A stretch of 64,000 nt of DNA from Planctomycetota bacterium (lineage in GTDB: Bacteria; Planctomycetota; UBA1135; GCA-002748355), in contig NYZE01000005.1 in NCBI GenBank assembly GCA_002685965.1, positions 1,712 to 65,711 on the forward strand, written 5' to 3'. A model generated the notes under the pieces. That model searched no databases. It saw only the letters and a program-made list of their open reading frames with translations, and was not told the DNA's origin. Position numbers and translations under genes: made by a program. Shown here piece after piece: positions 5,179-48,827 of this stretch. Position 1 is the stretch's first letter. The number at the start of each line of letters is the position of its first letter.

Positions 5179-5254
<76 letters not shown>

Positions 5255-9640: not shown

Positions 9641-10345
9641 ATGGCCAAGGAGCACACAAACGACCGGAATGTCCGCGCTCGGCAGCGCGGCTTCACGATG
9701 ATCGAAATGCTGATCGTTGTCAGCGTCATCGTGATCATCGCGACGATTGCTGTGCCGAACTACTTGAGTAGCAAGGTCGTCGCCAACGAGGCGGCCGTCG
9801 TTGCGACTCTCAGGAAGGTCTCGACTGCCGAGGAGTTGTTCCGGAACGGCCGGTACGTCGACCAGGACGGCAACAGCTGGGGCGAGTTCGGATACCTCGG
9901 CGAGCTGTCGGGGATCACGGCGCTGCGCAGCAACGGGAACTACCTGAAACCCGCGGTGCTGAGCCCGTCGTTCGGCTTCATCGACGCCGAGGGTTTCGGC
10001 ATGCGTCACGGCTACACGTTCCGTCTCTACCTGCCCAACGCTGCTGGCCTCGGCGTGCCCGAGAAGCCATCGACCATCGGCACGGTCGATCCGGCGAACG
10101 CAGCTCAGTACTTCAGCTGCATCGCGTGGCCGCGTGTCTACGGCAAGAGCGGCTACCACACGTACTTCATCAACCAGCAGGGTGAGATCGTCAAGACGAT
10201 CGACACTCACTACAGCGGAACAACAGGCGCGCCGATTGCTAACTGCGCGCTGATCGGCGTTCCGGTCGGGGTCATCGCGGGCAACTCGCTTGCGACCGGC
10301 GGAACGATCGGCGTGGATGGCAACAGGTGGATTTCTGTGCAATGA
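9641..10345 (+). CDS. Prepilin-type N-terminal cleavage/methylation domain protein (type IV pilin / T2SS pseudopilin-like), orphan
   Basis: Leader MAKEHTNDRNVRARQRG followed by FTMIEMLIVVSVIVIIATIAVPN (G-1, F+1, E+5 signature). No secretion or pilus machinery genes adjacent. Confidence 0.85.
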   Translation: MAKEHTNDRNVRARQRGFTMIEMLIVVSVIVIIATIAVPNYLSSKVVANEAAVVATLRKVSTAEELFRNGRYVDQDGNSWGEFGYLGELSGITALRSNGNYLKPAVLSPSFGFIDAEGFGMRHGYTFRLYLPNAAGLGVPEKPSTIGTVDPANAAQYFSCIAWPRVYGKSGYHTYFINQQGEIVKTIDTHYSGTTGAPIANCALIGVPVGVIAGNSLATGGTIGVDGNRWISVQ

Positions 10346-10690
10346 GCCTGCACGAGGACATGAAACAAGGACTACTGACACCGCCTTCTTCGGAGGGTAG
10401 GCGTCGCCCGGTGGCAACCGGGGTAGACGAAGGTCGCGCGGGGAAGGGAGCCTTCGTCGACTACCCGCTTGAGGTTTGGGGAAACCTTAGCGTGGTAGAT
10501 TCAGATCGATGCGTTGTCGGGGGGCTCCGCGCGATCTAGGGGGGGCGACGGTTCACGCGCGGCCGTCGCTCGCATCCCTTTCCTGCAGAGGCAGCACAGA
10601 GGGTAACTCTCGTAATCCTTTGCTCTGCGGTGTTGCCTCTGGCGGACCCAATGGTAGCTCTTTGCGCGCCGACCGGGTCTGCTATCGGGC

Positions 10691-12160
10691 ATGGCCTACC
10701 GAGACCTCCGTGACTTCATCGAGCACCTCGAACGTGAGGGCGAGCTGAAGCGCATCAGTGTCGAAGTCGATCCCGAACTGGAGCTGTGCGAGATCGCCGA
10801 CCGCGTCAGCAAGGACATCGGGCCGGCGCTCTTGTTCGAGCAGGTCAAGGGGTCCGCGATGCCCGTGCTCGTCAACGCTGTCGGCAGCATGCGACGGGTG
10901 TGCATGGCGCTCGGGGTCGAGGACATCGAGGAGGTTGCGGCGCGGTTGTCGTCAATCCTCGACCAGAAGACCCCAGAAGGGTTCCTCGAGAAGGTCAAGC
11001 AGCTGCCGAAGTTGCTCGATCTCGCGAAGATGTTCCCCAAGCTCGTGAAGGCTGGGCCGTGCAAGGACGTGATTCTGCGCGGCGACGACATCGACCTGAA
11101 TGCGTTGCCGATCCTCAGGACCTGGCCACAGGACGCCGGGCGCTTCATCACGATGCCGATGGTGTTCACCAAGAGCTCCAGCGGCGTGCGCAACTGCGGC
11201 ATGTATCGACTGCAGGTCGTCGACGAGCGGCGCACGATGTTCCACACCCATGTGCACCACGATGGAGCCAAGAATGCCGAACAAGATGGACGGCGACGCG
11301 TGCCTGCCGCGGTGGCGATCGGCTGCGATCCGACGACGGTGATGGCGGCGGTGTTGCCGGCGCCGCCGGATCTCGACGAGATGCTGCTGTCCGGGTTCTT
11401 GCGCAACAAACCCGTGCCGATGGTCAAGTGCGAGACGCATGACCTGGACGTTCCGGCCGAGTCCGAGATCGTGCTCGAGGGTTGGGTCGATCTCGACGAC
11501 GTGCGCGTCGAGGGACCGTTCGGCGACCACACTGGCTTCTACTCGCTGCAGGATCGCTTCCCGGTGTTCGAGGTCGAGTGTGTGACCATGCGCGAGAACC
11601 CGATCTACATGACGACGATTGTCGGGCAGCCGCCGATGGAGGACTGCTGGATCGGCAAGGCAATCGAACGCATCTTCCTGCCGCTGATGCGCAAGCAACT
11701 GCCGGAGATCGTCGACGTCTGCATGCCGTTCGAGGGCGTGTTCCACAACCTGATGCTGGTGTCGATCGACAAGCGCTACCCAGGCCATGCGCGCAAGGTC
11801 ATGAACGCGATCTGGAGCCTCGGGCAGGCGATGTTCACGAAGGTTGTTGTCGTCGTCGACAAGGACGTTGACGTCCAGAAGCCGGCCGAGGTCGTGTTTC
11901 ACGCGCTGGCCAACATCGATCCGGAGCGTGACCTTCAGTTCACGATGGGGCCTGCCGAACTGCTCGACCACGCGAGCCGGCTCAAGTGCTACGGCAGCAA
12001 GGTCGGCGTGGACGCGACGCGCAAGTGGAAGGACGAGGGCTTCGATCGGTCGTGGCCGGACCTGATTCGCATGGATCCAGGCACGCGGGCTCTGGTCGAT
12101 CAGCGTTGGGATTCCTATGGTCTAGGCCGCTTCCTGCGGTCCCCCAGCGCCAGAGGTTGA
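10691..12160 (+). CDS. UbiD-family (prFMN-dependent) decarboxylase
   Basis: 489 aa. MAYRDLRDFIEHLEREGELKRISVEVDPELELCEIADRV... and GPFGDHTGFYS are typical of the UbiD family. The substrate (quinone pathway or other) cannot be told from sequence. Confidence 0.85.
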   Translation: MAYRDLRDFIEHLEREGELKRISVEVDPELELCEIADRVSKDIGPALLFEQVKGSAMPVLVNAVGSMRRVCMALGVEDIEEVAARLSSILDQKTPEGFLEKVKQLPKLLDLAKMFPKLVKAGPCKDVILRGDDIDLNALPILRTWPQDAGRFITMPMVFTKSSSGVRNCGMYRLQVVDERRTMFHTHVHHDGAKNAEQDGRRRVPAAVAIGCDPTTVMAAVLPAPPDLDEMLLSGFLRNKPVPMVKCETHDLDVPAESEIVLEGWVDLDDVRVEGPFGDHTGFYSLQDRFPVFEVECVTMRENPIYMTTIVGQPPMEDCWIGKAIERIFLPLMRKQLPEIVDVCMPFEGVFHNLMLVSIDKRYPGHARKVMNAIWSLGQAMFTKVVVVVDKDVDVQKPAEVVFHALANIDPERDLQFTMGPAELLDHASRLKCYGSKVGVDATRKWKDEGFDRSWPDLIRMDPGTRALVDQRWDSYGLGRFLRSPSARG

Positions 12161-12163
12161 ACC

Positions 12164-13603
12164 ATGTCTGAGACGGAAAGCCCGAGCACGGATGGTGCGC
12201 AGCCACCTGCGCCTGAGGCCCCATCGACGCCGGCTCCCGAGCCGACAACAACGCCGGCCCCAGGATCCGCTCCCGAGTCGGTCCCCGCGCCGGCAGCCCT
12301 GGAAGAAGTCGCCAGTCCGGCCGATGCATCGACGCCAACGAGCGAGTCAGCGGCCAGTGCTGGCGAGCCCCGCCCCGGTCGCGACCGAGGCGGCCGTGCG
12401 CAGGGAGACCATCCACCCAAGCAGCGCCGCAAGCGGACCAAGAAGCCCAGTGGTGAGGGTGGCTCCGATGGACCTCGTCGTTCACCGACTGAACTCCTGA
12501 CCGAGGCCCTGCAGCGCTTTCGCAACGCCTACCTCGACATTCGTTCGCGCGCGGGTGGCGGCCGGCTGACGGAATCGGGCAACACGGACTCGGTCGAGCT
12601 GGTGTTGTCTGTGCCGTTGGTCACGTCGAACATCGGCGCCGCGGCGGACAAGCTCGTACGGGACTTGCGCGGCGGCCTCGAGAAGCGTGTGCTCGAAGCG
12701 GGCATGCTCGTCCCGGGACGAGCGTGGTGTTTCAGTACGGCCAGTTTCGACAGCGACTACTCGCGCCCCGAAGATCCGCGCCAGGTACTCGTCGGCTACG
12801 GCCTCGAGGGTCGGCCGCGTTACGCCGACCTGGTCACGCTCGCGATCGAGCGCAAGCACGAGTCAGTCGACGAGTTGCTGGCCGGCAAGGAGGGCGCAGT
12901 CAGCTTCGTCGAGGCGGGTGCCGCGGTCACCGAAGGCGTCAAGCCGGCATTTGATCCGGATGCGATTCCGCATCGACTCGTGGCGCAGTCGATCGCCGGA
13001 CTCTTCGCTTCGGCGGAAGAAGGGCGCCGCGTCGCACTGACGATCCAGGTCCTCGCCCACGACGGCGAGGACGGCAAGCTGCGGTTGGTCGTTCACCCGG
13101 TCAGCGCGGTAGACCTCATGGACCTGCCCGACCCGAACCTGCGCCGCATCCTGCGCAGCTTCCAGACCAACCTGATCCAGATCGCCAAGACGATCGATGG
13201 CGAGCGCGCGGCTGGCAAGGAGGTCGACGTGACGGAAGCCGTGCTCGGGCCGCTGCGCGAACTGACGCGGCAGATGTCCGCAGACGCGCGCAACCGCGAG
13301 CGCAAGACGACGCACGCGCGAGAGCGCGGTGGCGAAGGCGATCGGCCGACGCAACTCGCCTTCCCCGAGGCGCGCAGCGCTCACGATCACCACTTGTACA
13401 TCGACAACGAAGAGCAGACCGTCGTCGTGATCGGCAAGAAGGGGCGCGTGCATGTGTTCTCGCCCGACGGCCGTCATGTGACGACGGTCGTGATGCCGCC
13501 GGCGAACGTGCGTCAGCGCGTCAGCGCAGGTCGTTGGCGTCCGGCCGAGCCACCCGAGCGGGGCGCGTTCCGCGACGCGATCGCGGGCAAGAAGGAGTCG
13601 TAG
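12164..13603 (+). CDS. Hypothetical protein; Pro/Ala/Ser-rich disordered N-terminus, basic patch, unrecognised C-terminal domains
   Basis: 479 aa. Starts 3 bp after the ubiD stop and ends 16 bp before the next gene. GAGG SD 8 nt upstream. High GC3 in this frame. No motif recognised. Confidence 0.6.
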   Translation: MSETESPSTDGAQPPAPEAPSTPAPEPTTTPAPGSAPESVPAPAALEEVASPADASTPTSESAASAGEPRPGRDRGGRAQGDHPPKQRRKRTKKPSGEGGSDGPRRSPTELLTEALQRFRNAYLDIRSRAGGGRLTESGNTDSVELVLSVPLVTSNIGAAADKLVRDLRGGLEKRVLEAGMLVPGRAWCFSTASFDSDYSRPEDPRQVLVGYGLEGRPRYADLVTLAIERKHESVDELLAGKEGAVSFVEAGAAVTEGVKPAFDPDAIPHRLVAQSIAGLFASAEEGRRVALTIQVLAHDGEDGKLRLVVHPVSAVDLMDLPDPNLRRILRSFQTNLIQIAKTIDGERAAGKEVDVTEAVLGPLRELTRQMSADARNRERKTTHARERGGEGDRPTQLAFPEARSAHDHHLYIDNEEQTVVVIGKKGRVHVFSPDGRHVTTVVMPPANVRQRVSAGRWRPAEPPERGAFRDAIAGKKES

Positions 13604-13619
13604 GGCACGAGCTCACCCA

Positions 13620-14498
13620 ATGCCTCTGATCGAAGCCCTTCGGCCCCATCAGTGGGTCAAGAACCTGCTCGTGTTTGCGCCGCTGGTGTTCGCGCGCAAG
13701 CTCATCGACCCCGCGGCATGCTTGCACGCGGCCAGCGCTTTCGTTGCTTTCTGTGCCGTTGCGAGCGGGATCTACCTGCTCAATGACCTGAGCGATATCG
13801 ACGCTGACAAGCTTCACCCCGAGAAGAAGTTGCGGCCGTTGCCGTCCGGTCGCCTGTCCGCCGGAACGGCGAAGGTCACTTTGGTGCTGCTTTGGATCGG
13901 TGGGCTGGCGCTCGCGTTCCTCGGCGCGAACTGGTTCCACTGGCCGCTCGGCGTCTACCTCGTCATCAACATCTTCTATTCGTTGAAGCTCAAACAAGTC
14001 GTGCTGCTCGACACGATGTGCATCGCGCTCGGGTTCTTGCTGAGGATCTACTCTGGCGCGGTCGCCATCGGTGAAGAAGCCTCACCATGGTTGGTGTTGT
14101 GCACGTTCTTCGTCGCGCTCCTGCTCGCGTTCGGCAAGCGCCGTCACGAACTCCATCTGCTCGGCGAAGGCTCACTCGAGCACCGCAAGTCACTCGCCGA
14201 ATACTCGTTGCCCTACCTGGATCAGCTCATCGCTCCGCTCGGCGCGCTGACCGTGATGACTTACGCGATGTACACGGTGTCCGAACGCACGGTCACCGAG
14301 GTCACCGACAAGCTGATCTTCACGGTGCCGTTCGTCGTCTACGGGATCTTCCGCTACCTCTACCTCGTGCACATGCGCGCCGAGGGCGGGAATCCGACCA
14401 GGCTGCTGCTCAAGGATCCGCCCATGTTCATCAACATCGTGCTCTGGTTAGGGGTCAGTGTGTGGGCGGTCTATACCGGCGCGGCTGTCCCGCAATGA
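13620..14498 (+). CDS. UbiA-superfamily prenyl-phosphate phosphoribosyltransferase (decaprenyl-phosphate 5-phosphoribosyltransferase, Rv3806c-like)
   Basis: 292 aa. ALRPHQWVKNLLVFAPL, Asp-rich YLLNDLSDIDADKLHPEKKLRPLPSG (NDxxDxxxD), GKRRHEL, HRKSLAEYS and FRYLYL align by eye with mycobacterial DPPR synthase, not with MenA/UbiA/MqnP N-termini. Confidence 0.8.
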   Translation: MPLIEALRPHQWVKNLLVFAPLVFARKLIDPAACLHAASAFVAFCAVASGIYLLNDLSDIDADKLHPEKKLRPLPSGRLSAGTAKVTLVLLWIGGLALAFLGANWFHWPLGVYLVINIFYSLKLKQVVLLDTMCIALGFLLRIYSGAVAIGEEASPWLVLCTFFVALLLAFGKRRHELHLLGEGSLEHRKSLAEYSLPYLDQLIAPLGALTVMTYAMYTVSERTVTEVTDKLIFTVPFVVYGIFRYLYLVHMRAEGGNPTRLLLKDPPMFINIVLWLGVSVWAVYTGAAVPQ

Positions 14499-14508
14499 CG
14501 CGACCCTG

Positions 14509-15834
14509 ATGAAGTCGCATGCGCCCTTGCTCGCCACGGGCGCCGTGCTCGCTGCCGTGGCGGGGGGCCTGCGCCTGGCCCAGGCCTGGCGAGTGCCAGT
14601 GCCGTCGACCGACGGGGCCTCGTATCTATGGATCGCGGAAGCGCTTGCGCGTGGTGACTTCGTGGCGGGGCTGGACCACGTGTTCCACCCGGGTGCGCCG
14701 CTCGCCTGGGCGCCGCTGATCGCCGTCGGCGTCGACGCGCATCTGGCTGCGAAGCTGGTCGGTGTAGTCTGCGGCGCCGTCGCGGCGGTGTTCGTCTGGC
14801 TGGCAGCGCGCGGGATAAGCGATGACCGCAAGGGACTGTGGGCGGCGCTGCTCTTCGCGGGCTGCTTCCTCGCCGTGCGCCTACCGGCGGATGCATACAG
14901 CGAAGCGGTCTACCTCGTGCCCGCGGCCGCGGCGGTGTGTTTCGCCGTGCGCGGCCGGGTGACAGCTATCGGCTTGGCGGCGGGCATCGCCTTCTGGGTG
15001 CGGCCCGAAGCCCTGTGCCTGGTGCCGCTAGTGTTCGTGCGCGGCGTGCGCCGCGGAACCCTGGGTGTTTTCGTCCTCGTTGCGGTCGCCGCGGTCTATC
15101 CGCTTGCCCGATGGCTGTTCGTCGGCGAGTTGGACCTGACGCCGAAGGCCGATTTCATGGCGTCGATGGGGCCATTGGCGGCGCCAGACGTTGCGGGCGT
15201 ATTGCTGGGTCTCGGGCACAACCTGTTACGAGTTCCGCTCGAAGCGATCCCGGCGCTCGACTGGGTCGTGTTCCCGCTTGGCCTCGCCGGCCTCCTGGTG
15301 GGTCAACGGCGTCAGACGCCGTTGACCCACCAGGCGCGGATGCCGCGGCTCGTGCTGGCCGCCCTCGTGCTTGGCTGGTTGGCGATGATCCCGTTCCAGG
15401 TGAAGCCACGCTTCTTCCTGAGTCAGGCGCCGCTGCTCTTGCCGTTCGCGCCGCTGGCCTTCCGGCATGCGCGGTGGCTCCTGTTCGCGGGTCTCGCTTT
15501 GAGCCTGTGGCGCACCGGGAGCGACATCGTGCGGCCGCCACGCACGGAGAAGCGGGCCGAGCGAGTTACCGGCGAGCAGCTTGCTGAGCGCGGTATCGAG
15601 CAGGGACAACTCGCTACGGACCTGCCGCGGATCGCTTACTACGCGGGCTTGCGGCCACCGCTTCCGGTCGTGTGGACCCCTCTGATGCTCACGGACAGGC
15701 TCGACGATCCCGCAGTTCGGTGGGTCGTCTTCGGCGCTCTCCACGAAGGCAGGCGTGCGTTACTCGGGAGCCGCCGCGACTTTCGTTTGCTCGCCCAACC
15801 CGACCGCCGCCTGTTGCTCGCCGAGCGGCGCTGA
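14509..15834 (+). CDS. GT-C-fold integral membrane glycosyltransferase (PMT_2/ArnT-like)
   Basis: Track ORF 14458-15834. ATG at 14509 avoids overlap with the upstream gene. MKSHAPLLATGAVLAAV..., STDGASYLWIAEALARGDF in the first loop, more than 10 predicted TM segments. Confidence 0.6.
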   Translation: MKSHAPLLATGAVLAAVAGGLRLAQAWRVPVPSTDGASYLWIAEALARGDFVAGLDHVFHPGAPLAWAPLIAVGVDAHLAAKLVGVVCGAVAAVFVWLAARGISDDRKGLWAALLFAGCFLAVRLPADAYSEAVYLVPAAAAVCFAVRGRVTAIGLAAGIAFWVRPEALCLVPLVFVRGVRRGTLGVFVLVAVAAVYPLARWLFVGELDLTPKADFMASMGPLAAPDVAGVLLGLGHNLLRVPLEAIPALDWVVFPLGLAGLLVGQRRQTPLTHQARMPRLVLAALVLGWLAMIPFQVKPRFFLSQAPLLLPFAPLAFRHARWLLFAGLALSLWRTGSDIVRPPRTEKRAERVTGEQLAERGIEQGQLATDLPRIAYYAGLRPPLPVVWTPLMLTDRLDDPAVRWVVFGALHEGRRALLGSRRDFRLLAQPDRRLLLAERR

Positions 15835-17055
15835 CGTGGCGCGGAGGCAGACCACCCAGACCCAAAGAGCACCGAAGGTCACGACGTAGAGCGACTGCAG
15901 GACCTCCTTGCCCTGCCGCCCGATCAGCCAGGGTGCCAGCGCGACACAGGCGACGAAGTAGAGCGCCAGGCCGACCGAGACCGAGCGACGGCGCAGCGCC
16001 AACATCGCGAAGAAGGCCGGGAAGAGCTGCACGTGGTAGGACTTCCATGTGATCGGTGACAACAACAGCGTCAGACAGATGATCGCCGCCACGCCGCCGA
16101 TCTCGACCCACGCGGATGTCGCGCGGCGGCGGCGCCACAGCAACATGGCGGTCACTCCGACGAGCAGCACGCTGGCGAGGAGTCGGATCCCGCCGATCGC
16201 AGCCGTGCCCATGCCGATCCCTTGGAAGAACAGTGGGTTCACCAGCACGAACTCATCCGGCACGGTGCCGCAGTAGCGCGCCAAGCAATAACGCAACGAC
16301 TGGTGCATCCAACTGAAGCGCGGAAACGACAGCGCCGGATCCGCGAACAAGTCGGGTTGCGTTGCGAACCGCCATACGCCTTCGATCCAGCGTGTCTCGA
16401 CGGCCCACCAGCTTTCGGCGCCGAGCGTCAGCATCGGACTCATGTGCAGCGCCACTGCGGTCGCGATGGCCACCGCGAACGACCGGTGTCTGCCGCGCAA
16501 CCAAAGCCAGCCCAGGAACAACACCGGTGTCGGCTTTGCGGCAAGCACGATGCCGAGCAGGGCGCCGCGCCATGGATGTCGATCCTCGCCCGGCGCCTCG
16601 CCCGGCCTGAGGCACGCCATTGCGACGAGAGCGCCGAACACGAGGTTGCCGCCGCCACCGGCAGTGTCGCGCCAGAGGTAACGAGCTACTAGCGCGAACG
16701 CACCGGCCACGAGCCACAGCGGCGGGTCGGTGCCTCCGCTCATGGAACGAAACCAGGACAGGCACAGGACGACCAGCCCGGCCAAGGCGATGACCTGGAG
16801 CACGGCCCACAGCGCACGTGCCGCAGCGAGCGGCAGCACGCTGAGTGGTGCCATGATGATGCCGTAGGACGGCGGATACGGCACGTGCAGGTTGCGCGGA
16901 TCGTCCACCGTGTAAGGGTCGACGCCGTGGGCGACCTTGTCGGCGAACAGCCAGGTGCGTCGCATCGAGCCGCCTTGGCTGCGAGTTGCCCGCGGCACGA
17001 GCACCGCTGCGAGGATCACGGCGGCAACGAGCATGATCCAGCGGTCGCGCGTCAC
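15760..17055 (-). CDS. GT87 / DUF2029-family polyprenyl-phosphate-sugar-dependent glycosyltransferase (PimE-like)
   Basis: 431 aa polytopic protein. N-terminal loop GVDPYTVDDPRNLHVPYPPSYG matches the DUF2029 pattern. Start overlaps the upstream gene's stop by 4 bp. Confidence 0.6.
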   Translation of the reverse strand: MTRDRWIMLVAAVILAAVLVPRATRSQGGSMRRTWLFADKVAHGVDPYTVDDPRNLHVPYPPSYGIIMAPLSVLPLAAARALWAVLQVIALAGLVVLCLSWFRSMSGGTDPPLWLVAGAFALVARYLWRDTAGGGGNLVFGALVAMACLRPGEAPGEDRHPWRGALLGIVLAAKPTPVLFLGWLWLRGRHRSFAVAIATAVALHMSPMLTLGAESWWAVETRWIEGVWRFATQPDLFADPALSFPRFSWMHQSLRYCLARYCGTVPDEFVLVNPLFFQGIGMGTAAIGGIRLLASVLLVGVTAMLLWRRRRATSAWVEIGGVAAIICLTLLLSPITWKSYHVQLFPAFFAMLALRRRSVSVGLALYFVACVALAPWLIGRQGKEVLQSLYVVTFGALWVWVVCLRATSAPLGEQQAAVGLGEQTKVAAAPE

Positions 17056-17699
17056 CCGGCGGCCCCGTAGCGCTCGCGGTCGTGCCGCATGAGCCGCCGG
17101 TCCTTGTCGCGCAGTCGCCGGGAACTACTCGCGCGCAAGTCCGGTTGATCGAGCAGGGTCAGCATGGACGCGTCGTCGGTGCCATGCGTCGGGATCAAGA
17201 TGTTGCGATACTTGGCGCCGAGCAGCACCAGGCCGCGCTCGTGCACGCGGCGCACGAGTTCATCAGCGGCATCGAGGGCTGCCCCAGCATTCTTGGGGCG
17301 ATCGGCGAGCCAACGCACCAGGTCGGTGTGGCCGGCGACCTCTTCGGTGATCAGGACGGCCAGCTTCGGCATTACCAGGCCGCGTGCAGCGCCGGACGCG
17401 ATCAGCTCTGGCGTGCGAAACCCGTGCTGTCGTAGCGTCGTCAATGCCTTTGCTTCGCGCTTGATCGGTGAGCCGCGGAAGGCGTAGCTGGGCCAGCGCG
17501 ACGGGTGCAGCCGTGCCCGTCGCAGGTCCTGCACCTTGATCCAGAACACGCGCTCCCCGAGAGGCAGCCTCGCCAGTCGTCGCGTGCGCGATCGGTCAAC
17601 GATCTCGCCGGTCTCTGCTTCCGCGAACTGTTCGAGGGTCTCGAGTTCGGCGACGCGGAACAACTCGCGTGCTTCCTCGTCGCGCCAGACGACACTCAT
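17052..17699 (-). CDS. Lipopolysaccharide kinase (Kdo/WaaP/InaA) family protein, probably catalytically inactive
   Basis: Track ORF 17052-17780. ATG at 17699 makes an ATGA overlap with the methyltransferase stop. Family-like FWIKVQD..., REAKALTTLRQHGFRTPELIA, LITEEVAG. The HxDLxxxN catalytic loop reads LLGAKYRNIL (His to Leu, Asp to Gly). Confidence 0.6.
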   Translation of the reverse strand: MSVVWRDEEARELFRVAELETLEQFAEAETGEIVDRSRTRRLARLPLGERVFWIKVQDLRRARLHPSRWPSYAFRGSPIKREAKALTTLRQHGFRTPELIASGAARGLVMPKLAVLITEEVAGHTDLVRWLADRPKNAGAALDAADELVRRVHERGLVLLGAKYRNILIPTHGTDDASMLTLLDQPDLRASSSRRLRDKDRRLMRHDRERYGAAG

Positions 17700-18370
17700 T
17701 TGGCGGGCTTCAGCACCGCCACGCTCTGGCCGGAGAAGAGGCCGGACAGGGATCGCGTCGAGACGAGTTCCCAGCCGCATTCGCCGGCGAGCGCTTCGAG
17801 ATCACCGCGCGTCAGCACGGTGCGACGGTTGTCGACGTGTGACAGCGCCCTGCGCTGCGCGTGCACCCACTGCTTGGGCGTCGACGCATCCAGCCAGGTC
17901 AAGACCAGCGGGCCGCGCACGACGCGGCGGAACTCTCGCAGGATCTGTCGCTGCTCGTCCGCGTTGCGAAAGTGGTGGATCAACCGCAAGCAGCAGGCGA
18001 TGTCGAACGCGCCATCGTCGAAGGGCATGTCGCGAGCGTCGGCCTGTTGGAAGTGGGCTATCCGGTCACCAACGACCTCACGGCAAATAGCCAGCATGTG
18101 CGGCGAGTGATCGGCGCCGACGTAGGTATTTGCGTGCTTGACCAGGAGCGGTGCAAAGCGGCCGGCGCCACATGGCAGGTCGAGCAGCACCGGCGAGTTC
18201 GGCGCTCGCAGCACGTCGGGCAGCAGGCCGAGTGCTTCCTTGACAGCCCGGTCCACAAGCGCCCGCTCGCGCCAAGCGCTGAGTCGTCGCGTCCAGCTCT
18301 TCTCGAACTTGTGCCGATATTGCAGCGCTTCGGCAGGGTCGAGATGGCGTTGGCAGTAGGCCTCGCTCAC
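17696..18370 (-). CDS. Class I SAM-dependent methyltransferase
   Basis: 224 aa. Motif I VLLDLPCGAGRFAPLL, then MPFDDGAFDIACCLRLIHHF. Confidence 0.8.
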   Translation of the reverse strand: MSEAYCQRHLDPAEALQYRHKFEKSWTRRLSAWRERALVDRAVKEALGLLPDVLRAPNSPVLLDLPCGAGRFAPLLVKHANTYVGADHSPHMLAICREVVGDRIAHFQQADARDMPFDDGAFDIACCLRLIHHFRNADEQRQILREFRRVVRGPLVLTWLDASTPKQWVHAQRRALSHVDNRRTVLTRGDLEALAGECGWELVSTRSLSGLFSGQSVAVLKPAK

Positions 18371-18409: not shown

Positions 18410-19717
18410 CTACCGGGTGCCGGTTCCGATCCCGAAGTAAGTGAAGCCGGCTTCGTCCATCTTGTCGGCGGCGAAGATGTTGCGGCCGTCGAAGATGACC
18501 GGTGCGCTCAGGCGCTGCTTGAGCTCGTCGAGATCCGGGTGGCGGAACTCACTCCACTCGGTGATCACGAGCAGTGCGTCGGCACCGTCGACCGCTTCCA
18601 TGGGCTTCTTGGCGTATTCGATGCGATCGCCGAGCACGCGCCTGGTTTCCTCGATGGCCTCGGGGTCATTGGCGACGATCGTCGCGCCGCGCTCGAGCAA
18701 GGCTGGGATGATGGTCAGACTCGGCGCCTCACGCATGTCGTCGGTACGCGGCTTGAACGAGAGTCCCCACACCGCGAAACGCTTGCCGCGGAGGTCCTCG
18801 CCGTAGTGACCGACGATCTTCTCGACCAGGTACGACTTCTGCGCCGCGTTGACGTTTTCGACAGCCTGTACGATCTTGAAGTCGTAACCGTTCGATTCCG
18901 AGGTGCGCATGATGGCGCGCACGTCCTTCGGGAAGCACGAACCACCGTAGCCGACACCGGCGAACAGGAAGGCTGATCCGAGTCGAGCATCCGTGCCGAC
19001 GCCCTTGCGCACGTGCGAGAAGTTGGCACCGACCTTGTCGCAGAGGCGCGCGATCTCGTTCATGAACGAAATCCTCGTCGCGAGCAGCGCGTTGGCCGCG
19101 TACTTGGTCAGCTCCGCGCTCTCCGGATCCATCACGAGGATCGGCTTGCCGGTGTGCACGAAAGGCCCGTAGAGTTCCTTCATGATCTCGGCTGCGCGTG
19201 AGTCGTTGGCGCCGATGACGACGCGATCCGGCTTCATGAAGTCGTCAATCGCCGTACCTTCCTTCAAGAACTCGGGATTGGACACGACGTCGAACGGTTG
19301 GTTGGTGCGGGACTTGATCATTTCGGCGACCTTGCGCGAGGTGCCGACGGGAACCGTCGACTTGTCGACGATGACCCGGTAGCCGTCCATGTTGTCGCCA
19401 ATCGTCTCGGCGACCTTCAACACGTAGTTGAGATCGGCCGAGCCGTCCTCGTCCATCGGTGTGCCGACCGCGATGAAGATCACGGTCGCGTCCTTGACCG
19501 CTTGCGCGACGTCGGTCGTGAAGGACAGGCGGTCCTCCGAACAATTGCGTCGGATGAGCTCCTCGAGGCCGGGTTCGTAGATCGGGACGCCGCCTGCTTG
19601 CAACATCGCGACCTTTTCGGTGTCGATGTCGGCGCAAACAACGGTGTTACCCGTTTCGGCGAAACAGGTGCCGACGACGAGGCCGACGTAGCCGGTGCCG
19701 ATGACGGAGATTTTCAT
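18410..19717 (-). CDS. ugd: UDP-glucose 6-dehydrogenase
   Basis: 435 aa. MKISVIGTGYVGLVVGTCFAETGN (Rossmann GxGxxG); catalytic Cys context GYGGSCFPKD. Confidence 0.9.
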   Translation of the reverse strand: MKISVIGTGYVGLVVGTCFAETGNTVVCADIDTEKVAMLQAGGVPIYEPGLEELIRRNCSEDRLSFTTDVAQAVKDATVIFIAVGTPMDEDGSADLNYVLKVAETIGDNMDGYRVIVDKSTVPVGTSRKVAEMIKSRTNQPFDVVSNPEFLKEGTAIDDFMKPDRVVIGANDSRAAEIMKELYGPFVHTGKPILVMDPESAELTKYAANALLATRISFMNEIARLCDKVGANFSHVRKGVGTDARLGSAFLFAGVGYGGSCFPKDVRAIMRTSESNGYDFKIVQAVENVNAAQKSYLVEKIVGHYGEDLRGKRFAVWGLSFKPRTDDMREAPSLTIIPALLERGATIVANDPEAIEETRRVLGDRIEYAKKPMEAVDGADALLVITEWSEFRHPDLDELKQRLSAPVIFDGRNIFAADKMDEAGFTYFGIGTGTR

Positions 19718-19823: not shown

Positions 19824-20975
19824 CTACCGATGCTGTGGGATCTTCTCGGCTTTTTGGGCCTGCTGCGCCTTCTTCTCTGCCTCGCGCCGCTTGCGCGCCT
19901 TCCGCTTGAACACATTCCAGCCGAGCCGCGAGGCCCAGGCCAAGAGCTTTTGCTGTGGGGAAGTGTGCAGGCGTGGCGGGTCGAACACGATGCCAGCGGC
20001 GGCCAGGTTCTTCGGGGTCGGAACGCGCTGCGCCTCGAACGAGCCGGTGCCCGGCTTCTCCTGGTTCATGGCGATCCGTAGCAGGCGGCCCGACTCCTCG
20101 ACTACGGTCATCTCGATGCGCCCGGCGTCCCCGAGGAAGAGCCTGCGGGCGTCCGGGCGCGAGCGCCGCTGGCTATGCTTGCGGTGCCAGCCTCGCTTCT
20201 TGCGCTTGGGCCTCTCTTCTTCGACCTCTGTCTGGAGGCGGTACGAGCCGCCCAGCGTTACCGTCGCGCCCGCCGCGGTGTCCGCGCGACCGACGACCTT
20301 CACGTCCAGTTCGTCGAGCAACACTTCGAGGAAGGGCTTGAGTTCGGTGTAGTTCATCACTGGAGCCAGTGCCGTGAGCTCGACTATTTCCGGGCTCTTC
20401 AGCGGTACTTCCATCGCAGGTCCGGTCGGCGACTTGATCCAGAGCACCTTGCCGTCGGAACCCAACTCGGTTGGCCCCCAGTCGCCCTTGTCGAGACGCT
20501 GCCAGTGGAAGCGACGATTTGGCGCGAGCGCGGCCCGCCACCGAGTGTCCCAGCGCCCAATCATCGTGATCTCGTAGACGTGCACGCCTTGGTCGTGCTC
20601 GCGCACGGCGTTCTCGAGCAGCGTCTCGGCGTATGCCGGTGTCCACTTGCGCCACGACGACCAGGCGAGCCAGCTGCCGAGCAGCACGACCGCAGCTGCG
20701 GCCGCGGCTGCGGCGACCATGGGCGCTAGGCGCCGCGGACGCGGTGCTTGCCGCGATGTGTGCACGGTCTTCTCGCCCTCGATGCTGGCCATGACGGCGC
20801 GGATGCGTGCGTCGCCGTGAGACCTCGCGCCGGTCCGGTTCGCGCCGCGTTCGTGCAGCAGCAGACCGTGCACGAACAGCTCGTGCGCGCGCTCTTTGAC
20901 ATCACGATCACGCGCTACGGTGGCGTCGAACTCGCCCGACGCGGGGGGGAAGTCAGTGTGTGCGTCGTCACGCAT
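19824..20975 (-). CDS. Putative membrane-anchored anti-sigma / sigma-partner protein
   Basis: 383 aa, 9 bp downstream of the ECF sigma gene. One TM (MVAAAAAAAAVVLLGSWLAW), a periplasmic domain and a Lys/Arg-rich tail. No ZAS motif; role inferred from position only. Confidence 0.4.
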   Translation of the reverse strand: MRDDAHTDFPPASGEFDATVARDRDVKERAHELFVHGLLLHERGANRTGARSHGDARIRAVMASIEGEKTVHTSRQAPRPRRLAPMVAAAAAAAAVVLLGSWLAWSSWRKWTPAYAETLLENAVREHDQGVHVYEITMIGRWDTRWRAALAPNRRFHWQRLDKGDWGPTELGSDGKVLWIKSPTGPAMEVPLKSPEIVELTALAPVMNYTELKPFLEVLLDELDVKVVGRADTAAGATVTLGGSYRLQTEVEEERPKRKKRGWHRKHSQRRSRPDARRLFLGDAGRIEMTVVEESGRLLRIAMNQEKPGTGSFEAQRVPTPKNLAAAGIVFDPPRLHTSPQQKLLAWASRLGWNVFKRKARKRREAEKKAQQAQKAEKIPQHR

Positions 20976-20984
20976 GCGAATCTC

Positions 20985-21563
20985 CTATGCCCCTCCCTGC
21001 AGGGCCGTGATGCGTTGCTCTATGCAGCGACCGAGCCAGGCCCTGCTCCGTTGCAGCAGCTTCTTGATTGACTCACGCGTGCGTCCCTGACGGTCCGCGA
21101 TCGCATTGCAGCCGAGGTCCTCCTCGTAGTGCAGCCGCAGCACGTCGCGCTGGTGCTCGGGCAGCCCAACGAGGCACTTGCGCAGCGAAACCAGCTGTTC
21201 GTCGAGCGTGTCGCCACTGGCAGTGTCGAGCAGGGCGTAGAGATCTTGCAGATGATCAACGACCGCTTCCTCGACGAAGGTCACCCGCTGGTCTGAGACG
21301 TGGCGGTAGTGGGCGAAGCAAAGGCGGCGGCCAATGCCGCGCAACCAGGGGCCGAACGGCTTGCCACGGTCGTAGCGGTAGAGATTGCGCCAGGCCACGA
21401 GGAACGACTCCTGGACCACGTCGTCGACGCCGGCCGGGTCGCGCACGAGGCTGTTCACGAAGGCCCGGAGCCGGGGCTCGTGTTCGCGTACGAGGATCTC
21501 GAACAGCTCGTGCGGCTGCACGAACGGCTCCTCCAGGGGGGCGAGGCTGGGGCTTTCCGACAT
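20985..21563 (-). CDS. ECF-type RNA polymerase sigma-70 family factor
   Basis: Track ORF 20985-21584 begins at a GTG; ATG at 21563 gives MSESPSLAPLEE. Region 2 DDVVQESFLVAWRNLYRYD; region 4 LPEHQRDVLRLHYEEDLGCNAIADRQGRTRESIKKLLQRSR. Confidence 0.85.
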   Translation of the reverse strand: MSESPSLAPLEEPFVQPHELFEILVREHEPRLRAFVNSLVRDPAGVDDVVQESFLVAWRNLYRYDRGKPFGPWLRGIGRRLCFAHYRHVSDQRVTFVEEAVVDHLQDLYALLDTASGDTLDEQLVSLRKCLVGLPEHQRDVLRLHYEEDLGCNAIADRQGRTRESIKKLLQRSRAWLGRCIEQRITALQGGA

Positions 21564-21628
21564 GTCTCGAAGAGTATTGTGCACCAGGACCTTCAGGGGA
21601 CGTGGATTTAGAGGCCAACGGACCGCTT

Positions 21629-23356
21629 ATGGCGGCCGATGATGAGGGTGTGAGCGACCCGATGCCCAGGCCGAGGCAGGACTCTGACCGAGCCGTGGCA
21701 TGGCGCCTTTTCGGGCTCCTGTTCCTGGTGTTCGGGCTGCTGTCGCAGGGTCACATCGTCAACACCGACGCCGAGGTCGAGTTCCAGTCGGCGCGCTCTC
21801 TCTGGCTGCGGGGGAGTCCGGGGCTGTCGGACAAGCACGCTGACGCCTCGCTGGCCGAGACCTGGATCGCCTCGAATGCCGCCTCGGGGAATAAGCTGCC
21901 GGCGGTCGTCGAGGGTCTCGATGGCGACTACTACACCTGGTTCGGGATCGGCCACACGCTGACGATGGCCCCGTTCTATGCGGTCGGGCGCGAACTCGGG
22001 AAGCTGTTCGCGTCGACCGAAGACGCGCTCGGGCGGTCGTTCGCCGCCGACCCACAGGGGATCGGCGCGGCGATGGGGGACGAGTTCTTCGCGCGGTTGG
22101 CGGTCAGCTTCCATGCGCCGCTGTTCGGGGCGCTGACAGGAGTCGTGCTCTTCCTGCTGCTGGGTTGGTTCGGCTTTTCGACCCGGCACCGCATCATCGC
22201 CGTGTTGCTGGCGGCGTCCACGACGCAGTTCGGACCCGGCACGAAGGAATGCATGAGCAACGTCGTGGACGGTTGCTTCCTGTTACTCGCGGTCGAGCGT
22301 GCCCTCGCCTGGTCGCGCAACGGCAAGCACGTCGCGCTGCTCGCGGCCGGAATCGCGGCCGGCTTTGCGGTCTTGTGCCGCAACGCGCACGCAGTGACGG
22401 TCATCGGTCTGTTCGTCTACGTGGCCTGGATCGCTTGGCGGCGCTCACGCATCGTCGACCTGCGTTGGTTCATCGCCGGTGGAGCGTTGTTCGCAGTGTT
22501 CTTGCTGTGGTTCAACTACGCGCGCTTTGGCAGCGTTACCAAGACCGGCTACCACACGCTGACGAACTACTGGAGCTTCAACCCGTTGTTCGGCTTCCCT
22601 CTGCTCGCGCTGAGTCCAGGCAAGGGGATGCTGTGGTTTTCGCCGCTTTTGTGGCTCGTACCTCTCGGTTTGCGCAGGCTAGGCGCACCGCGCGCCGACA
22701 TGCTCCTCTTGGTTTGGGTGTTGGCTTCGGCGTGGGTGCTCAACTCCTTCACGTCTGGTTGGCACTCGAGCCAGGCATGGGGCTGCCGCTATTTGACCAC
22801 CGGTGTCGTGCTGCTGGTTGCGGTCACGGTGGCGAGTTTGCTGCGCGCCGGGGGCGGGTCGGGCAAGCGGCTGCGTCTACTTGTCGTCGTGGCCACGCTT
22901 GGCGGCCTCGTCACGCTCGGCGGTTGGCTTGCTCCCTATCGTGGCTACTACGAGCTCGGGCACCGTGCGATCGCAGCCAAGTGGCCGCAGGTCCCTGTCG
23001 AGCACCACATCCAGTACCTGGTCTCGGAGCCGCGCATGACGCCGATCTTCGGGCATTGGGCGTATGCGTGGCTGTCGCTCGACGGGGCGATCCCCGATGG
23101 CCCATCGGAGGTCGTCCACGGCCTGATGTTCGGTCGTTCCGAGCAGCTCGAGACCAGGATCACCTGGCCCGAGGACACGGGGTTTCGCCACGTTTGGCCG
23201 ATCGGGCTGTGGCGGCGCCTCGATTCGTCCATGCCGCTGGTCATCGCCGGGCTGCTGGCGGGGCTGGCCGCCCTGCTCGCGTTCAGCGTTGCCGCGGCCG
23301 CGCGTGCACCACGTATGTCGGATCCTGAAAGCTCCCATCCACGTTCGTCAACGTGA
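21629..23356 (+). CDS. Polytopic membrane protein, GT-C-like putative glycosyltransferase
   Basis: Track ORF 21068-23356. Its first 187 codons are antisense to the sigma gene; ATG at 21629 (MAADDEGVSDP...) is in frame. First loop HIVNTDAEVEFQSARSL carries an acidic motif; more than 10 TM segments. Confidence 0.5.
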   Translation: MAADDEGVSDPMPRPRQDSDRAVAWRLFGLLFLVFGLLSQGHIVNTDAEVEFQSARSLWLRGSPGLSDKHADASLAETWIASNAASGNKLPAVVEGLDGDYYTWFGIGHTLTMAPFYAVGRELGKLFASTEDALGRSFAADPQGIGAAMGDEFFARLAVSFHAPLFGALTGVVLFLLLGWFGFSTRHRIIAVLLAASTTQFGPGTKECMSNVVDGCFLLLAVERALAWSRNGKHVALLAAGIAAGFAVLCRNAHAVTVIGLFVYVAWIAWRRSRIVDLRWFIAGGALFAVFLLWFNYARFGSVTKTGYHTLTNYWSFNPLFGFPLLALSPGKGMLWFSPLLWLVPLGLRRLGAPRADMLLLVWVLASAWVLNSFTSGWHSSQAWGCRYLTTGVVLLVAVTVASLLRAGGGSGKRLRLLVVVATLGGLVTLGGWLAPYRGYYELGHRAIAAKWPQVPVEHHIQYLVSEPRMTPIFGHWAYAWLSLDGAIPDGPSEVVHGLMFGRSEQLETRITWPEDTGFRHVWPIGLWRRLDSSMPLVIAGLLAGLAALLAFSVAAAARAPRMSDPESSHPRSST

Positions 23357-25826: not shown

Positions 25827-25903
25827 GGGCGATTAGCTCAGCTGGTTAGAGCACCTGCTTTACACGCAGGAAGTCGGCGGTTCGAGTCCGTCATCGCCCA
25901 CCA
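25827..25903 (+). tRNA. tRNA-Val (anticodon TAC)
   Basis: GGGCGATTAGCTCAGCTGGTTAGAGCACCTGCTTTACACGCAGGAAGTCGGCGGTTCGAGTCCGTCATCGCCCACCA. Acceptor GGGCGAT/ATCGCCC, anticodon loop TT-TAC-AC, encoded CCA. Confidence 0.95.
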
Positions 25904-33417: not shown

Positions 33418-34881
33418 CTACTTCTTCTTCCTGCGCATCAACAGCAATCGCTTGAGCGGGTCCGGGTGCGAACGCTCTTCGAAGAGCTCATACTTGGCGT
33501 GGAAGTCCGTCAGGGAAGCGACCGCAAGTTCGGGGCCGCGCCAGAAGGGGTTGTGGAACAGCACGAAGTCGGGCTCGGTCTCGCGGAACCACCAGGCAAA
33601 GTCGCCGCGCGACATGGCGTCGACGCCACCTTTGGTCACCAATCCCCACATGTCGATGATGCGCCAGTTCTCGAGTTCGTAGCCGAGCACGCCGATCTCG
33701 GCACACGCGATCGACGCGCCTTCGGGAAAGCGTTCGCGCAGCGACTTCGCGAGACTCGCGTAGTGTGGGTAGTAGGACACCGACTTGTAGTGCAGCGCGT
33801 TGGCGTCGCGCACGACGATCGGGCTCGGTGCGACGGGGTAGAGGTAGCCGATCACGAGGCAAGCGGCCACCGTGCGTGCCACGGCGCGCTGGTGCCATAG
33901 AACCTCGACGATCACCGCGATGCCGAGGGTCAGCGTCAGGTTGAGCGGTATGTAGTACCAGAGGTAGTTGGGCAGGTTGAGCACGGCGTAGAGCGTTGAC
34001 TGCCCGAGACCGAAGACGACCAGCGGCCAGCAAGGGTGGCGCCGTGCCAGCGCCACCGCAGAGCCGACTGCGCCAAGCGAAATGAAGCCGACTTGCCAGA
34101 CCGTGTTCCATGGCTTGTCGAGCCGGATGTTCGCGAAGTTGCCGAGCTGGCCGACGACGTTCTTGACGAAGATCCAGCCTTCGCCGTGCAGGCCGGACTC
34201 GGTCTGTGCGAGCTTGGCGCCGAGGGTCTTCGGCACGAAAGAGCCGAACAGGGACCATGAGATCGTCGCCCAGGTCAGCAGCGGGACGACGAACAGCAAC
34301 AGGGCGAACCCGAACTCGCGCCACTGCGACTTCGGCTGCGTCCAGAGATAGTGCACGCAGATCGTTGTCGCCAGGACGACGCCATCACCTCGCGTCAGGC
34401 AGAGCGCCGCGAGCAAGATGGCGCATAGCTTGAATCGCCGGCGGGTGTAGCACCACGTCGCGGCGGTCGCGAAGCCGAGGATCAGCGGCGCGTCCATGCC
34501 GATCAGCCAATAGAGATACGGCAGGGACATGACGCACGCGCATGCGACGATCGCCGCGACCCACCCGCGCGCGCTGAACAGCAGGAAGGTGAACGTCCCG
34601 GTGGCGCCGACACCGAGGCCGAAGAGCAGGACTTGCGCAAGCTCGTAGCGGCCGCCGCTGAGCCACGACGCGAGTGTCAGCAGCAGCGTGTTGCCGGTCG
34701 AGGTTGCGCCGTCGACCCATTCACCCGGGTTGTAGACCCAGCCGCGTCCCTCGAGCAGGTTGCGCGCATAGCGCAGGTAGATCATCGAGTCGTCGACCTG
34801 GCACGGTTGCTTGAGCCATGCGAGGTACAGTGCGGCCCCTGTCGTCAGCGCTACGAGGGCTACTAGGCGTCGCACGGCCAC
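33418..34881 (-). CDS. GT-C-like polytopic membrane glycosyltransferase (arabinofuranosyl/mannosyl-transferase-like N-terminal motif)
   Basis: 487 aa. CQVDDSMIYLRYARNLLEGRGWVYNPGEWVDGATSTGNTLLL (DD motif plus conserved loop seen in uncharacterised GT-C proteins), about 11 TM, soluble C-terminal domain. Confidence 0.55.
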   Translation of the reverse strand: MAVRRLVALVALTTGAALYLAWLKQPCQVDDSMIYLRYARNLLEGRGWVYNPGEWVDGATSTGNTLLLTLASWLSGGRYELAQVLLFGLGVGATGTFTFLLFSARGWVAAIVACACVMSLPYLYWLIGMDAPLILGFATAATWCYTRRRFKLCAILLAALCLTRGDGVVLATTICVHYLWTQPKSQWREFGFALLLFVVPLLTWATISWSLFGSFVPKTLGAKLAQTESGLHGEGWIFVKNVVGQLGNFANIRLDKPWNTVWQVGFISLGAVGSAVALARRHPCWPLVVFGLGQSTLYAVLNLPNYLWYYIPLNLTLTLGIAVIVEVLWHQRAVARTVAACLVIGYLYPVAPSPIVVRDANALHYKSVSYYPHYASLAKSLRERFPEGASIACAEIGVLGYELENWRIIDMWGLVTKGGVDAMSRGDFAWWFRETEPDFVLFHNPFWRGPELAVASLTDFHAKYELFEERSHPDPLKRLLLMRRKKK

Positions 34882-48750: not shown

Positions 48751-48827
48751 GGGGACGTAGCTCAACTGGTTAGAGTACTGGACTGTCGATCCAGTGGTTG
48801 CGGGTTCGAGTCCCGTCGTCCTCGCCA
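48751..48827 (+). tRNA. tRNA-Asp (anticodon GTC)
   Basis: GGGGACGTAGCTCAACTGGTTAGAGTACTGGACTGTCGATCCAGTGGTTGCGGGTTCGAGTCCCGTCGTCCTCGCCA. Acceptor GGGGACG/CGTCCTC (one G:U), anticodon loop CT-GTC-GA, encoded CCA. Confidence 0.9.

Follow-up and report, generated by a model that had tools for sequence, protein, structure and literature searches.

Extracytoplasmic glycosylation with pentofuranoses has been shown biochemically for Citrobacter youngae O1/O2, in which ORF15, ORF14, and ORF12 form a three-component system that was proposed to be widespread (Kelly et al. 2024, PMC11127046). In the published scheme, a polyprenyl-phosphoribose synthase (PPPRS) makes undecaprenyl-phospho-ribofuranose (undecaprenyl-phospho-Ribf) from phosphoribosyl pyrophosphate (PRPP), epimerases are optional, a flippase exports the product, and a GT-C glycosyltransferase transfers the sugar (PMC11127046). 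Arabinan synthesis in mycobacteria and the arabinosylation of pilin in Pseudomonas are relatives of this scheme (PMC11127046). The locus described here lies in a 64,000-nucleotide stretch of contig NYZE01000005.1 (assembly GCA_002685965.1; hereafter the window, to which all positions refer unless a locus is named). The source is a metagenome-assembled genome (MAG) of an uncultured marine member of the Planctomycetota, which makes the Gram-negative-type genome assumed in an earlier note on this DNA reasonable. The window contains a gene for a UbiA-family protein that resembles decaprenylphosphoryl-5-phosphoribose (DPPR) synthases, directly followed by a gene for a predicted GT-C glycosyltransferase. 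This pair is conserved among related genomes, and the four-gene cluster in which it stands is not.

The cluster consists of four plus-strand open reading frames (ORFs), which encode a UbiD-family decarboxylase (10691–12160; 489 aa), a protein referred to here as ORF2 (12164–13603; 479 aa), a UbiA-family polyprenyl-phosphate 5-phosphoribosyltransferase of the PPPRS/DPPR synthase type (13620–14498; 292 aa), and a GT-C-fold glycosyltransferase of an unclassified family (14509–15834; 441 aa from the ATG, with the longest ORF beginning at a GTG at 14458). The genes are spaced 3, 16, and 10 nt apart. Their GC content at third codon positions (GC3) is 0.79–0.86, as is typical of coding sequences in this 65% GC genome, and independent gene calls on identical metagenome contigs reproduced their boundaries. 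The layout that the earlier note had given (four plus-strand genes with spacers of 3, 16, and about 10 bp) is therefore correct. A scan for promoter and terminator consensus sequences across the operon was uninformative.

The synthase and the GT-C protein

The UbiA-family protein exceeds the cut-offs of two models for decaprenyl-phosphate phosphoribosyltransferases, namely NF008977 (275.6 bits; cut-off 234) and NF008978 (213.4 bits; cut-off 207). By comparison, the NCBIfam models for quinone, heme, chlorophyll, and archaeal-lipid prenyltransferases gave only 17–49 bits, and the top-scoring one reached 49 bits against a cut-off of 269. Among the PDB sequences, Rv3806c (8j8j) is the sole strong match (E = 5e-30, full length) and is better by 26 orders of magnitude than the second one, DGGGPS (E = 3e-4). 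When the residues of Rv3806c were mapped onto the window protein via the HMMER alignment, nine of the 11 substrate contacts were found to be identical (R22, K28, Y70, N73, D77, K87, R90, Y138, and K143) and two to be substituted (Y157 by F and Q135 by N). In the Rv3806c structure, Mg2+ is bound by N73 and D77, the ribose by Q135, the 5-phosphate by K28, Y70, and Y157, and the pyrophosphate by R22, K87, R90, Y138, and K143 (PMC10994848). According to the same study, the phosphoribose contacts, K28 and Y70 among them, are not conserved in prenyltransferases, and Phe at the Y157 position is a variant found in some mycobacteria (PMC10994848). The substrate-contact positions are invariant across 18 aligned synthase homologs, and the translation contains all of the motifs that the earlier note had quoted (RPHQWVKN, NDLSDIDAD followed by HPEKKLRPLPSG, GKRRHEL, and RKSLAEY).

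The hidden Markov model (HMM) scores, the full-length match to Rv3806c, and the retained phosphoribose contacts place the protein, as judged by its sequence, in the decaprenyl-phosphate phosphoribosyltransferase clade and not among the quinone prenyltransferases. An assignment that had been made by eye now has the NF008977 score, the 8j8j match, and nine of 11 contact residues behind it, and the grouping with quinone prenyltransferases that had been considered as its refutation was not observed, with all such models below 50 bits. Taken alone, the predicted activity, i.e., formation of polyprenyl-phospho-(5-phospho)ribose, is quite likely. The protein has no extra domain, and its score against NF006088, the model for the HAD-fused type, is below the cut-off. 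Such Planctomycetota proteins are already labeled DPPR synthase by the NCBI pipeline. The DPPR-synthase-like clade as a whole is very large (one search yielded more than 5,500 proteins) and has members in Acidobacteriota, Ignavibacteria, Bacteroidota, Myxococcota, Bacillota, and Chloroflexota.

The 441-aa protein encoded downstream has a single family match, which is a sub-threshold hit to Pfam PMT_2 (E = 0.0016; 19.1 bits versus a gathering threshold of 26.1). Sequence and profile searches of the PDB gave no match at E ≤ 1, including AftB, AftA, and Emb, and a word-indexed search found five homologs. An AlphaFold2 (AF2) model was obtained with a pLDDT of 74 and a pTM of 0.76. When this model was compared with the PDB by Foldseek, 29 of the top 31 matches were GT-C glycosyltransferases, with noise beyond rank 31. 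The two others, at ranks 21 and 23, correspond to chain U of the human GPI transamidase complex, and all of the top 31 are polytopic enzymes of the endoplasmic reticulum or the cell envelope. The E-values were 2e-5 for STT3, 7e-4 for AftB, and 1e-3 for ArnT, and further GT-C matches include AglB, PglB, ALG12/9, AftA, EmbB, PimE, and Pmt. The protein consists of a polytopic N-terminal part and an alpha/beta C-terminal domain of about 100 aa, and a PSxDGxxYLWxA motif after the first transmembrane (TM) segment is invariant. In GT-C enzymes, the catalytic acid follows the first transmembrane helix. The Foldseek matches of the predicted model thus agree with the earlier identification of this gene product as a GT-C glycosyltransferase, and the modeled fold is of the GT-C type. 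A specific likeness to AftB, the mycobacterial partner named in the same note, is not supported, since sequence similarity to AftB is undetectable and AftB ranks just 12th among the GT-C structures matched; in the model, the protein is no nearer to AftB than to other GT-C enzymes.

Conservation of the gene pair

Six Planctomycetota genomes (L007, L008, L009, L093, L094, and L095), in which the UbiA protein is 60–68% identical to that of the window, were compared. In all six, the synthase gene is directly followed on the same strand by an ortholog of the GT-C gene (34–41% amino acid sequence identity). Across the window and these relatives, the two genes are separated by a gap of 0–120 nt or have a small overlap, and in L008, L093, and L094 the GT-C gene overlaps the synthase stop codon. 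Several genes of a convergent operon are conserved as well: a GT87 gene in five of the six relatives, a WaaP/Kdo-type kinase gene and a methyltransferase gene in four, and the genes for UDP-glucose dehydrogenase and an extracytoplasmic function (ECF) sigma factor with its membrane-protein partner in three.

The two upstream genes behave differently. In every relative, ORF2 is separated from the synthase by 1.5–6 kb of intervening genes, partly on the opposite strand, which encode an alpha/beta hydrolase and an MFS protein (opposite strand), a MobB-like P-loop protein, a GT9 enzyme, and a radical SAM enzyme. L008 and L094, which keep ORF2, the synthase, and the GT-C gene, lack UbiD at the syntenic position. 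Because of this separation in every relative and the absence of UbiD in L008 and L094, the compact four-gene arrangement is specific to the window genome, and the conserved unit is the synthase/GT-C pair together with the convergent operon. The enzyme/GT-C pairing pointed out in the earlier note is thus conserved in gene order, whereas the four-gene operon proposed there is not, and it was rejected as a conserved unit after the six-locus comparison. The order of UbiD followed by ORF2 recurs in L007, L009, L095, and L099. A gene for the MobB-like P-loop protein is located directly upstream of the synthase in four relatives (L007, 13025–13561; L008, 12231–12866; L093, 2822–3361; L094, 8389–8991) and has no counterpart in the window; in L093, the two genes share 4 nt at the start of the synthase.

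The UbiD protein contains three Pfam UbiD domains, as expected from the earlier call of a UbiD decarboxylase, and scores 575 bits (cut-off 496) against TIGR03701, the mena_SCO4490 equivalog model for menaquinone decarboxylase. Based on these matches, it is a predicted futalosine-type menaquinone decarboxylase similar to MqnL. Its sequence identity is 76–81% in L007, L009, and L095, compared with 34–41% for the GT-C protein, which fits a housekeeping gene located beside a fast-evolving surface-glycan enzyme. No UbiX gene was found in the 64-kb window.

ORF2 encodes a soluble protein. Its disordered N-terminus is rich in P, A, and S and includes a polybasic stretch, and after it comes a conserved domain of about 375 aa. 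Its AF2 model has pLDDT values above 90 across most of residues 105–479. Sequence and profile searches found no match in Pfam, NCBIfam, or the PDB, such that its earlier description as an unknown ORF is still apt, and Foldseek found no structural match of the model in the PDB or BFVD. An exhaustive profile search showed that the family comprises at least 645 clusters at 50% identity (E ≤ 1e-3), with members in Planctomycetota, Myxococcota, and elsewhere, and provided no functional clue. Homologs without UbiD or UbiA nearby are present in L010, L091, and L092, and in other contexts the gene is located beside those for SpoIID and a class A penicillin-binding protein or beside an acyl-CoA dehydrogenase gene. 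Taken together, UbiD is outside the glycosylation module, and ORF2 is not demonstrably part of it. Within the ORF2 family, the C-terminus carries an invariant RxTxHA..R..RPT ... GRxHxF...GRHVTS ... GRWR signature, and a CxxC...CxH motif (GRxYCFxCxSxxCxH) present in distant members was lost in the lineage of the window.

Neighboring genes and a conserved RNA element

The minus-strand operon that converges on the pair includes, next to the GT-C gene, a gene for a GT87-family GT-C glycosyltransferase of the polyprenyl-phosphate-sugar-dependent type (15760–17055, minus strand; PF09594, E = 3e-22). Its orthologs (45–52% identity) occupy the same position in L007, L008, L093, L094, and L095. In the window (15760–15834), the GT-C and GT87 genes share 75 nt at their convergent 3' ends, compared with 18 nt in L008 and none in L007. 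Farther along the same strand are genes for a Kdo/WaaP-family lipopolysaccharide-type kinase (17052–17699; PF06293, E = 2.8e-11; gene call from L001) and an S-adenosylmethionine (SAM)-dependent methyltransferase (17696–18370; Methyltransf_11 and Methyltransf_25), both of which are kept in L007, L008, L093, and L094, and for a UDP-glucose 6-dehydrogenase (18410–19717; three UDPG_MGDP_dh domains; TIGR03026, 456 bits), which is kept in L008, L093, and L094. The operon is headed by the genes for the ECF sigma factor (20985–21584, minus strand; Sigma70_r2 and r4_2 domains) and a single-pass membrane protein of 383 aa (19824–20975, minus strand; no Pfam match, one predicted TM segment). This pair is kept in L008, L093, and L094, and the position of the membrane protein gene suggests that its product is likely an anti-sigma factor. 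Divergent from these two genes is one that encodes a third GT-C-type protein, which is PMT_2/ArnT-like and has 584 aa (21602–23356, plus strand; PF13231 PMT_2, E = 5e-6, 27.2 bits versus 26.1; gene call from L001).

Upstream of the cluster, a gene for a pilin-like (prepilin-type) protein (9641–10345; N_methyl, E = 1.5e-7) ends 345 nt before UbiD. Within the gap between them is a conserved, structured element of non-coding RNA that is about 200 nt long (10395–10600, plus strand). One copy per related locus was found by nhmmer (L007, 7973–8162; L008, 9589–9822; L009, 6831–6991; L094, 5569–5809; L095, 1500–1661), and further copies are present on other metagenome contigs (L098, L099, L100, and L102). 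Most copies are located 50–100 nt after a pilin-like gene and 100–250 nt before UbiD or ORF2. RNAalifold predicted 50 pairs from 10 sequences, 22 of them with compensatory changes. The apex of the element carries the invariant sequence UCGCGC(G)GGGGAAGGGAGC, and at its end a GC-rich hairpin precedes a U-rich tract. A search of Rfam gave no match at E ≤ 1. A pattern scan of metagenomes returned seven loci; L101 and L103 share just the 21-nt pattern and are probably unrelated. The element could be the 3' untranslated region or terminator of the pilin gene, a leader, or a small RNA, and it could represent a new class of regulatory RNA.

Elsewhere in the window, a gene for a polytopic membrane protein of 487 aa (33418–34881, minus strand; about seven predicted TM segments, no Pfam match) is found directly upstream of a sodium:solute symporter gene. 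Rfam identified three tRNA genes (5182–5254, minus strand; 25827–25900, plus strand; 48751–48824, plus strand).

Proposed pathway and alternative explanations

The explanation that we consider somewhat probable is that the functional unit comprises two genes, the synthase and the GT-C gene, which would serve to make a lipid-linked pentofuranose and to transfer it to an envelope glycan, with a phosphatase and a flippase acting in trans. Acting at the cytoplasmic face of the inner membrane, the synthase would transfer 5-phosphoribose from PRPP to polyprenyl phosphate. Proteins that are presumably encoded outside the window would then remove the 5-phosphate and flip the product. The resulting donor would be polyprenyl-phospho-ribofuranose, or possibly an epimer of it if epimerases exist elsewhere in the genome; ribofuranose is assumed by default because no epimerase was seen. 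On the periplasmic side, according to the predicted topology, an envelope glycoconjugate would receive the pentofuranose from the 441-aa GT-C protein, whose likely catalytic base is Asp35, located in the first periplasmic loop. The acceptor may most likely be a lipopolysaccharide-core-type or other envelope glycan, and a lipopolysaccharide-core-like acceptor appears probable because of the genes for a WaaP-type kinase, a GT87 enzyme, and, in relatives, GT9 enzymes. UbiD and ORF2, which would be functionally unrelated, came to adjoin the pair in the window genome when intervening genes were lost. The polyprenyl-phospho-pentose-dependent periplasmic glycosylation suggested in the earlier note is, on the present analysis, still the best reading of the locus.

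Several observations weigh against this explanation. A Pfam scan of the roughly 50 ORFs of the 64-kb window found no DprE1-like (FAD_binding_4/ALO) or DprE2-like (short-chain dehydrogenase) epimerase, as had been noted earlier, no PAP2 or HAD phosphatase for the 5-phosphate, and no flippase of the GtrA/SMR or MATE type; no small polytopic ORF was found near the cluster either. Thus, beyond the synthase, two of the three components that define the published system are missing in cis. The model of the GT-C protein was built on an alignment of five sequences (pLDDT of 74), and donor specificity is not readable from a GT-C fold. Two further GT-C-type enzymes at the locus (GT87 and PMT_2) could equally use a lipid-linked pentose. 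In the window genome, the spacing of 3 and 16 nt makes co-transcription of UbiD and ORF2 with the pair probable. Finally, the synthase family is not universally tied to a GT-C gene in cis. Among 80 distant loci from other phyla (L011–L090; Acidobacteriota, Ignavibacteria, Myxococcota, Bacillota, Chloroflexota, and others) with synthase homologs of 41–52% identity, phmmer and iterated HMM searches found no UbiD, ORF2, or 441-aa GT-C family member near the synthase, and most of these distant synthases lack an obvious GT-C neighbor. In a Pfam census, their immediate neighbors are heterogeneous, with DUF362 the commonest downstream (10/52) and EamA transporters next (6/52); PMT_2 accounts for only 4/52, and others include two DprE1-like proteins and one HAD protein. 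A crude hydrophobicity screen indicated that polytopic proteins are mildly enriched near the distant synthases.

Alternatively, the synthase product may be used by the GT87 or the 584-aa PMT_2 enzyme, and the 441-aa GT-C protein may use another polyprenyl-phosphate sugar, such as a hexose or a uronic acid that originates from the product of UDP-glucose dehydrogenase. This alternative is possible although unlikely. It accords with the occurrence of three GT-C-type genes within 9 kb, with a fold that is silent on the donor, and with the co-conservation of GT87 and the synthase in five of the six relatives; in L096, GT87 is near the synthase and the 441-aa family is absent. Nevertheless, the 441-aa family is the only one encoded immediately after the synthase, and on its strand, in all six relatives, with an overlap of the synthase stop codon in L008, L093, and L094, and L009 has the pair without GT87.

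That all four genes form one pathway, in which UbiD and ORF2 would act on the polyprenyl-linked intermediate or the final glycolipid (for example, by a decarboxylation that yields an unusual head group), is improbable. The 3- and 16-nt spacers do suggest a single transcript, and the UbiD-ORF2 order recurs in four other loci. However, UbiD satisfies a menaquinone decarboxylase equivalog and is conserved at 76–81% in the manner of a housekeeping gene, L008 and L094 have the other three genes without UbiD at this position, and in all relatives ORF2 and the synthase are kept apart by opposite-strand genes. Moreover, ORF2 homologs in Myxococcota and elsewhere have neither partner, and UbiD and ORF2 are both missing from the surroundings of the synthase in all 80 distant loci.

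A slightly smaller chance still is given to O-glycosylation of the upstream pilin-like protein, in parallel to the addition of arabinofuranose to type IV pilin by Pseudomonas aeruginosa TfpW. The prepilin-type gene is syntenic in L007, L008, and L094, and the Pseudomonas precedent combines a PPPRS homolog with a GT-C enzyme (PMC11127046). Against this, the conserved structured element with its terminator-like hairpin follows the pilin gene, which is 4 kb away from the GT-C gene; no pilin match was found near the pair in L009 and L095, and the window has no DprE1/E2. Planctomycetota genomes contain very many prepilin-like genes, and adjacency to one of them is for this reason weak evidence.

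The futalosine-type UbiD, together with the adjacency of UbiD-like and UbiA-like genes of the futalosine pathway in Streptomyces, might suggest a menaquinone operon with the UbiA-family protein as an MqnP-type prenyltransferase, but this reading is effectively refuted and hardly credible given the prenyltransferase scores of 17–49 bits versus 276 bits for the DPPR synthase model, the lead of Rv3806c in E-value over any other solved structure, the retained phosphoribose-specific contacts, and the lack of UbiX in the window.

Comparison with known systems

The type of pathway proposed here is already known from mycobacterial arabinan, Pseudomonas pilin arabinosylation, and the Citrobacter O-antigen. 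The idea put forward in the earlier note is not new, since Gram-negative pathways of this kind have been published (PMC11127046) and the proteins already bear the NCBI name DPPR synthase. New here is a lineage-conserved instance with an unclassified GT-C family and without phosphatase, flippase, or epimerase genes in cis. With the concept established and the synthase auto-annotated in public genomes, the gain is incremental. If the proposal is correct, lipid-linked pentofuranose glycosylation would extend to marine Planctomycetota, a group in which envelope glycans have hardly been studied, the unclassified GT-C family would gain a clear candidate donor, and the envelope chemistry of an uncultured lineage would become testable by heterologous expression. 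There is also a useful negative result, in that the eye-catching link between UbiD and UbiA is a product of local gene loss and not a new pathway. A more far-reaching and rather doubtful idea is that the pair, together with GT87, the WaaP-like kinase, the methyltransferase, and UDP-glucose dehydrogenase under the ECF sigma factor, constitutes lineage-wide, vertically conserved machinery for a structural pentofuranose-containing envelope polymer, made via a GT-C family outside any classification. Such a polymer would be the equivalent, in Gram-negative form, of mycobacterial arabinan or ribofuranan and not a variable side-chain decoration.

Compared with the ArnT/PMT_2 (GT83/GT39-like) glycosyltransferases of lipid A and proteins, the window GT-C protein shares the fold and an acidic motif after TM1, and ArnT is among its structural matches. 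However, it is below the Pfam threshold and has no sequence match to ArnT structures; at 441 aa, it is also shorter, and its C-terminal alpha/beta domain is distinct. The pilin arabinosylation system of P. aeruginosa PA7/Pa5196 (the PPPRS homolog PsPA7_6246, DprE1/E2 homologs, and the GT-C enzyme TfpW) likewise combines a Gram-negative PPPRS homolog with a GT-C enzyme, and the window has a prepilin-like gene nearby. It differs in that the window lacks epimerase genes, its pilin gene is split from the GT-C gene by the terminator-like element and two unrelated genes, and the association between pilin and GT-C is not found in all relatives.

For the mycobacterial decaprenyl-phospho-arabinose pathway (Rv3806c, Rv3807c, DprE1/DprE2, Rv3789, and AftB with further arabinosyltransferases), the window contains a clear Rv3806c homolog with retained substrate residues, and its order of synthase followed by GT-C mirrors that of Rv3806c and Rv3805c (aftB). 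In contrast, a PAP2 phosphatase, DprE1/E2, and a GtrA-like flippase are not found in the 64 kb, and the window GT-C protein has no sequence similarity to AftB and is structurally no closer to it than to STT3 or ArnT.

The Citrobacter system resembles the window in having a gene for a UbiA-superfamily polyprenyl-phosphate phosphoribosyltransferase beside a GT-C gene in a didermic bacterium, and the predicted logic is the same, proceeding from PRPP through lipid-linked Ribf to periplasmic transfer, with optional epimerases. The window synthase differs in the lack of a fused HAD phosphoribose-phosphatase domain, no separate phosphatase, MATE flippase, or epimerase gene is found near it in the window, and its GT-C protein has no assignable family. 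Furthermore, the Citrobacter genes belong to a variable O-antigen locus, whereas the window module is conserved within its lineage together with core-type genes.

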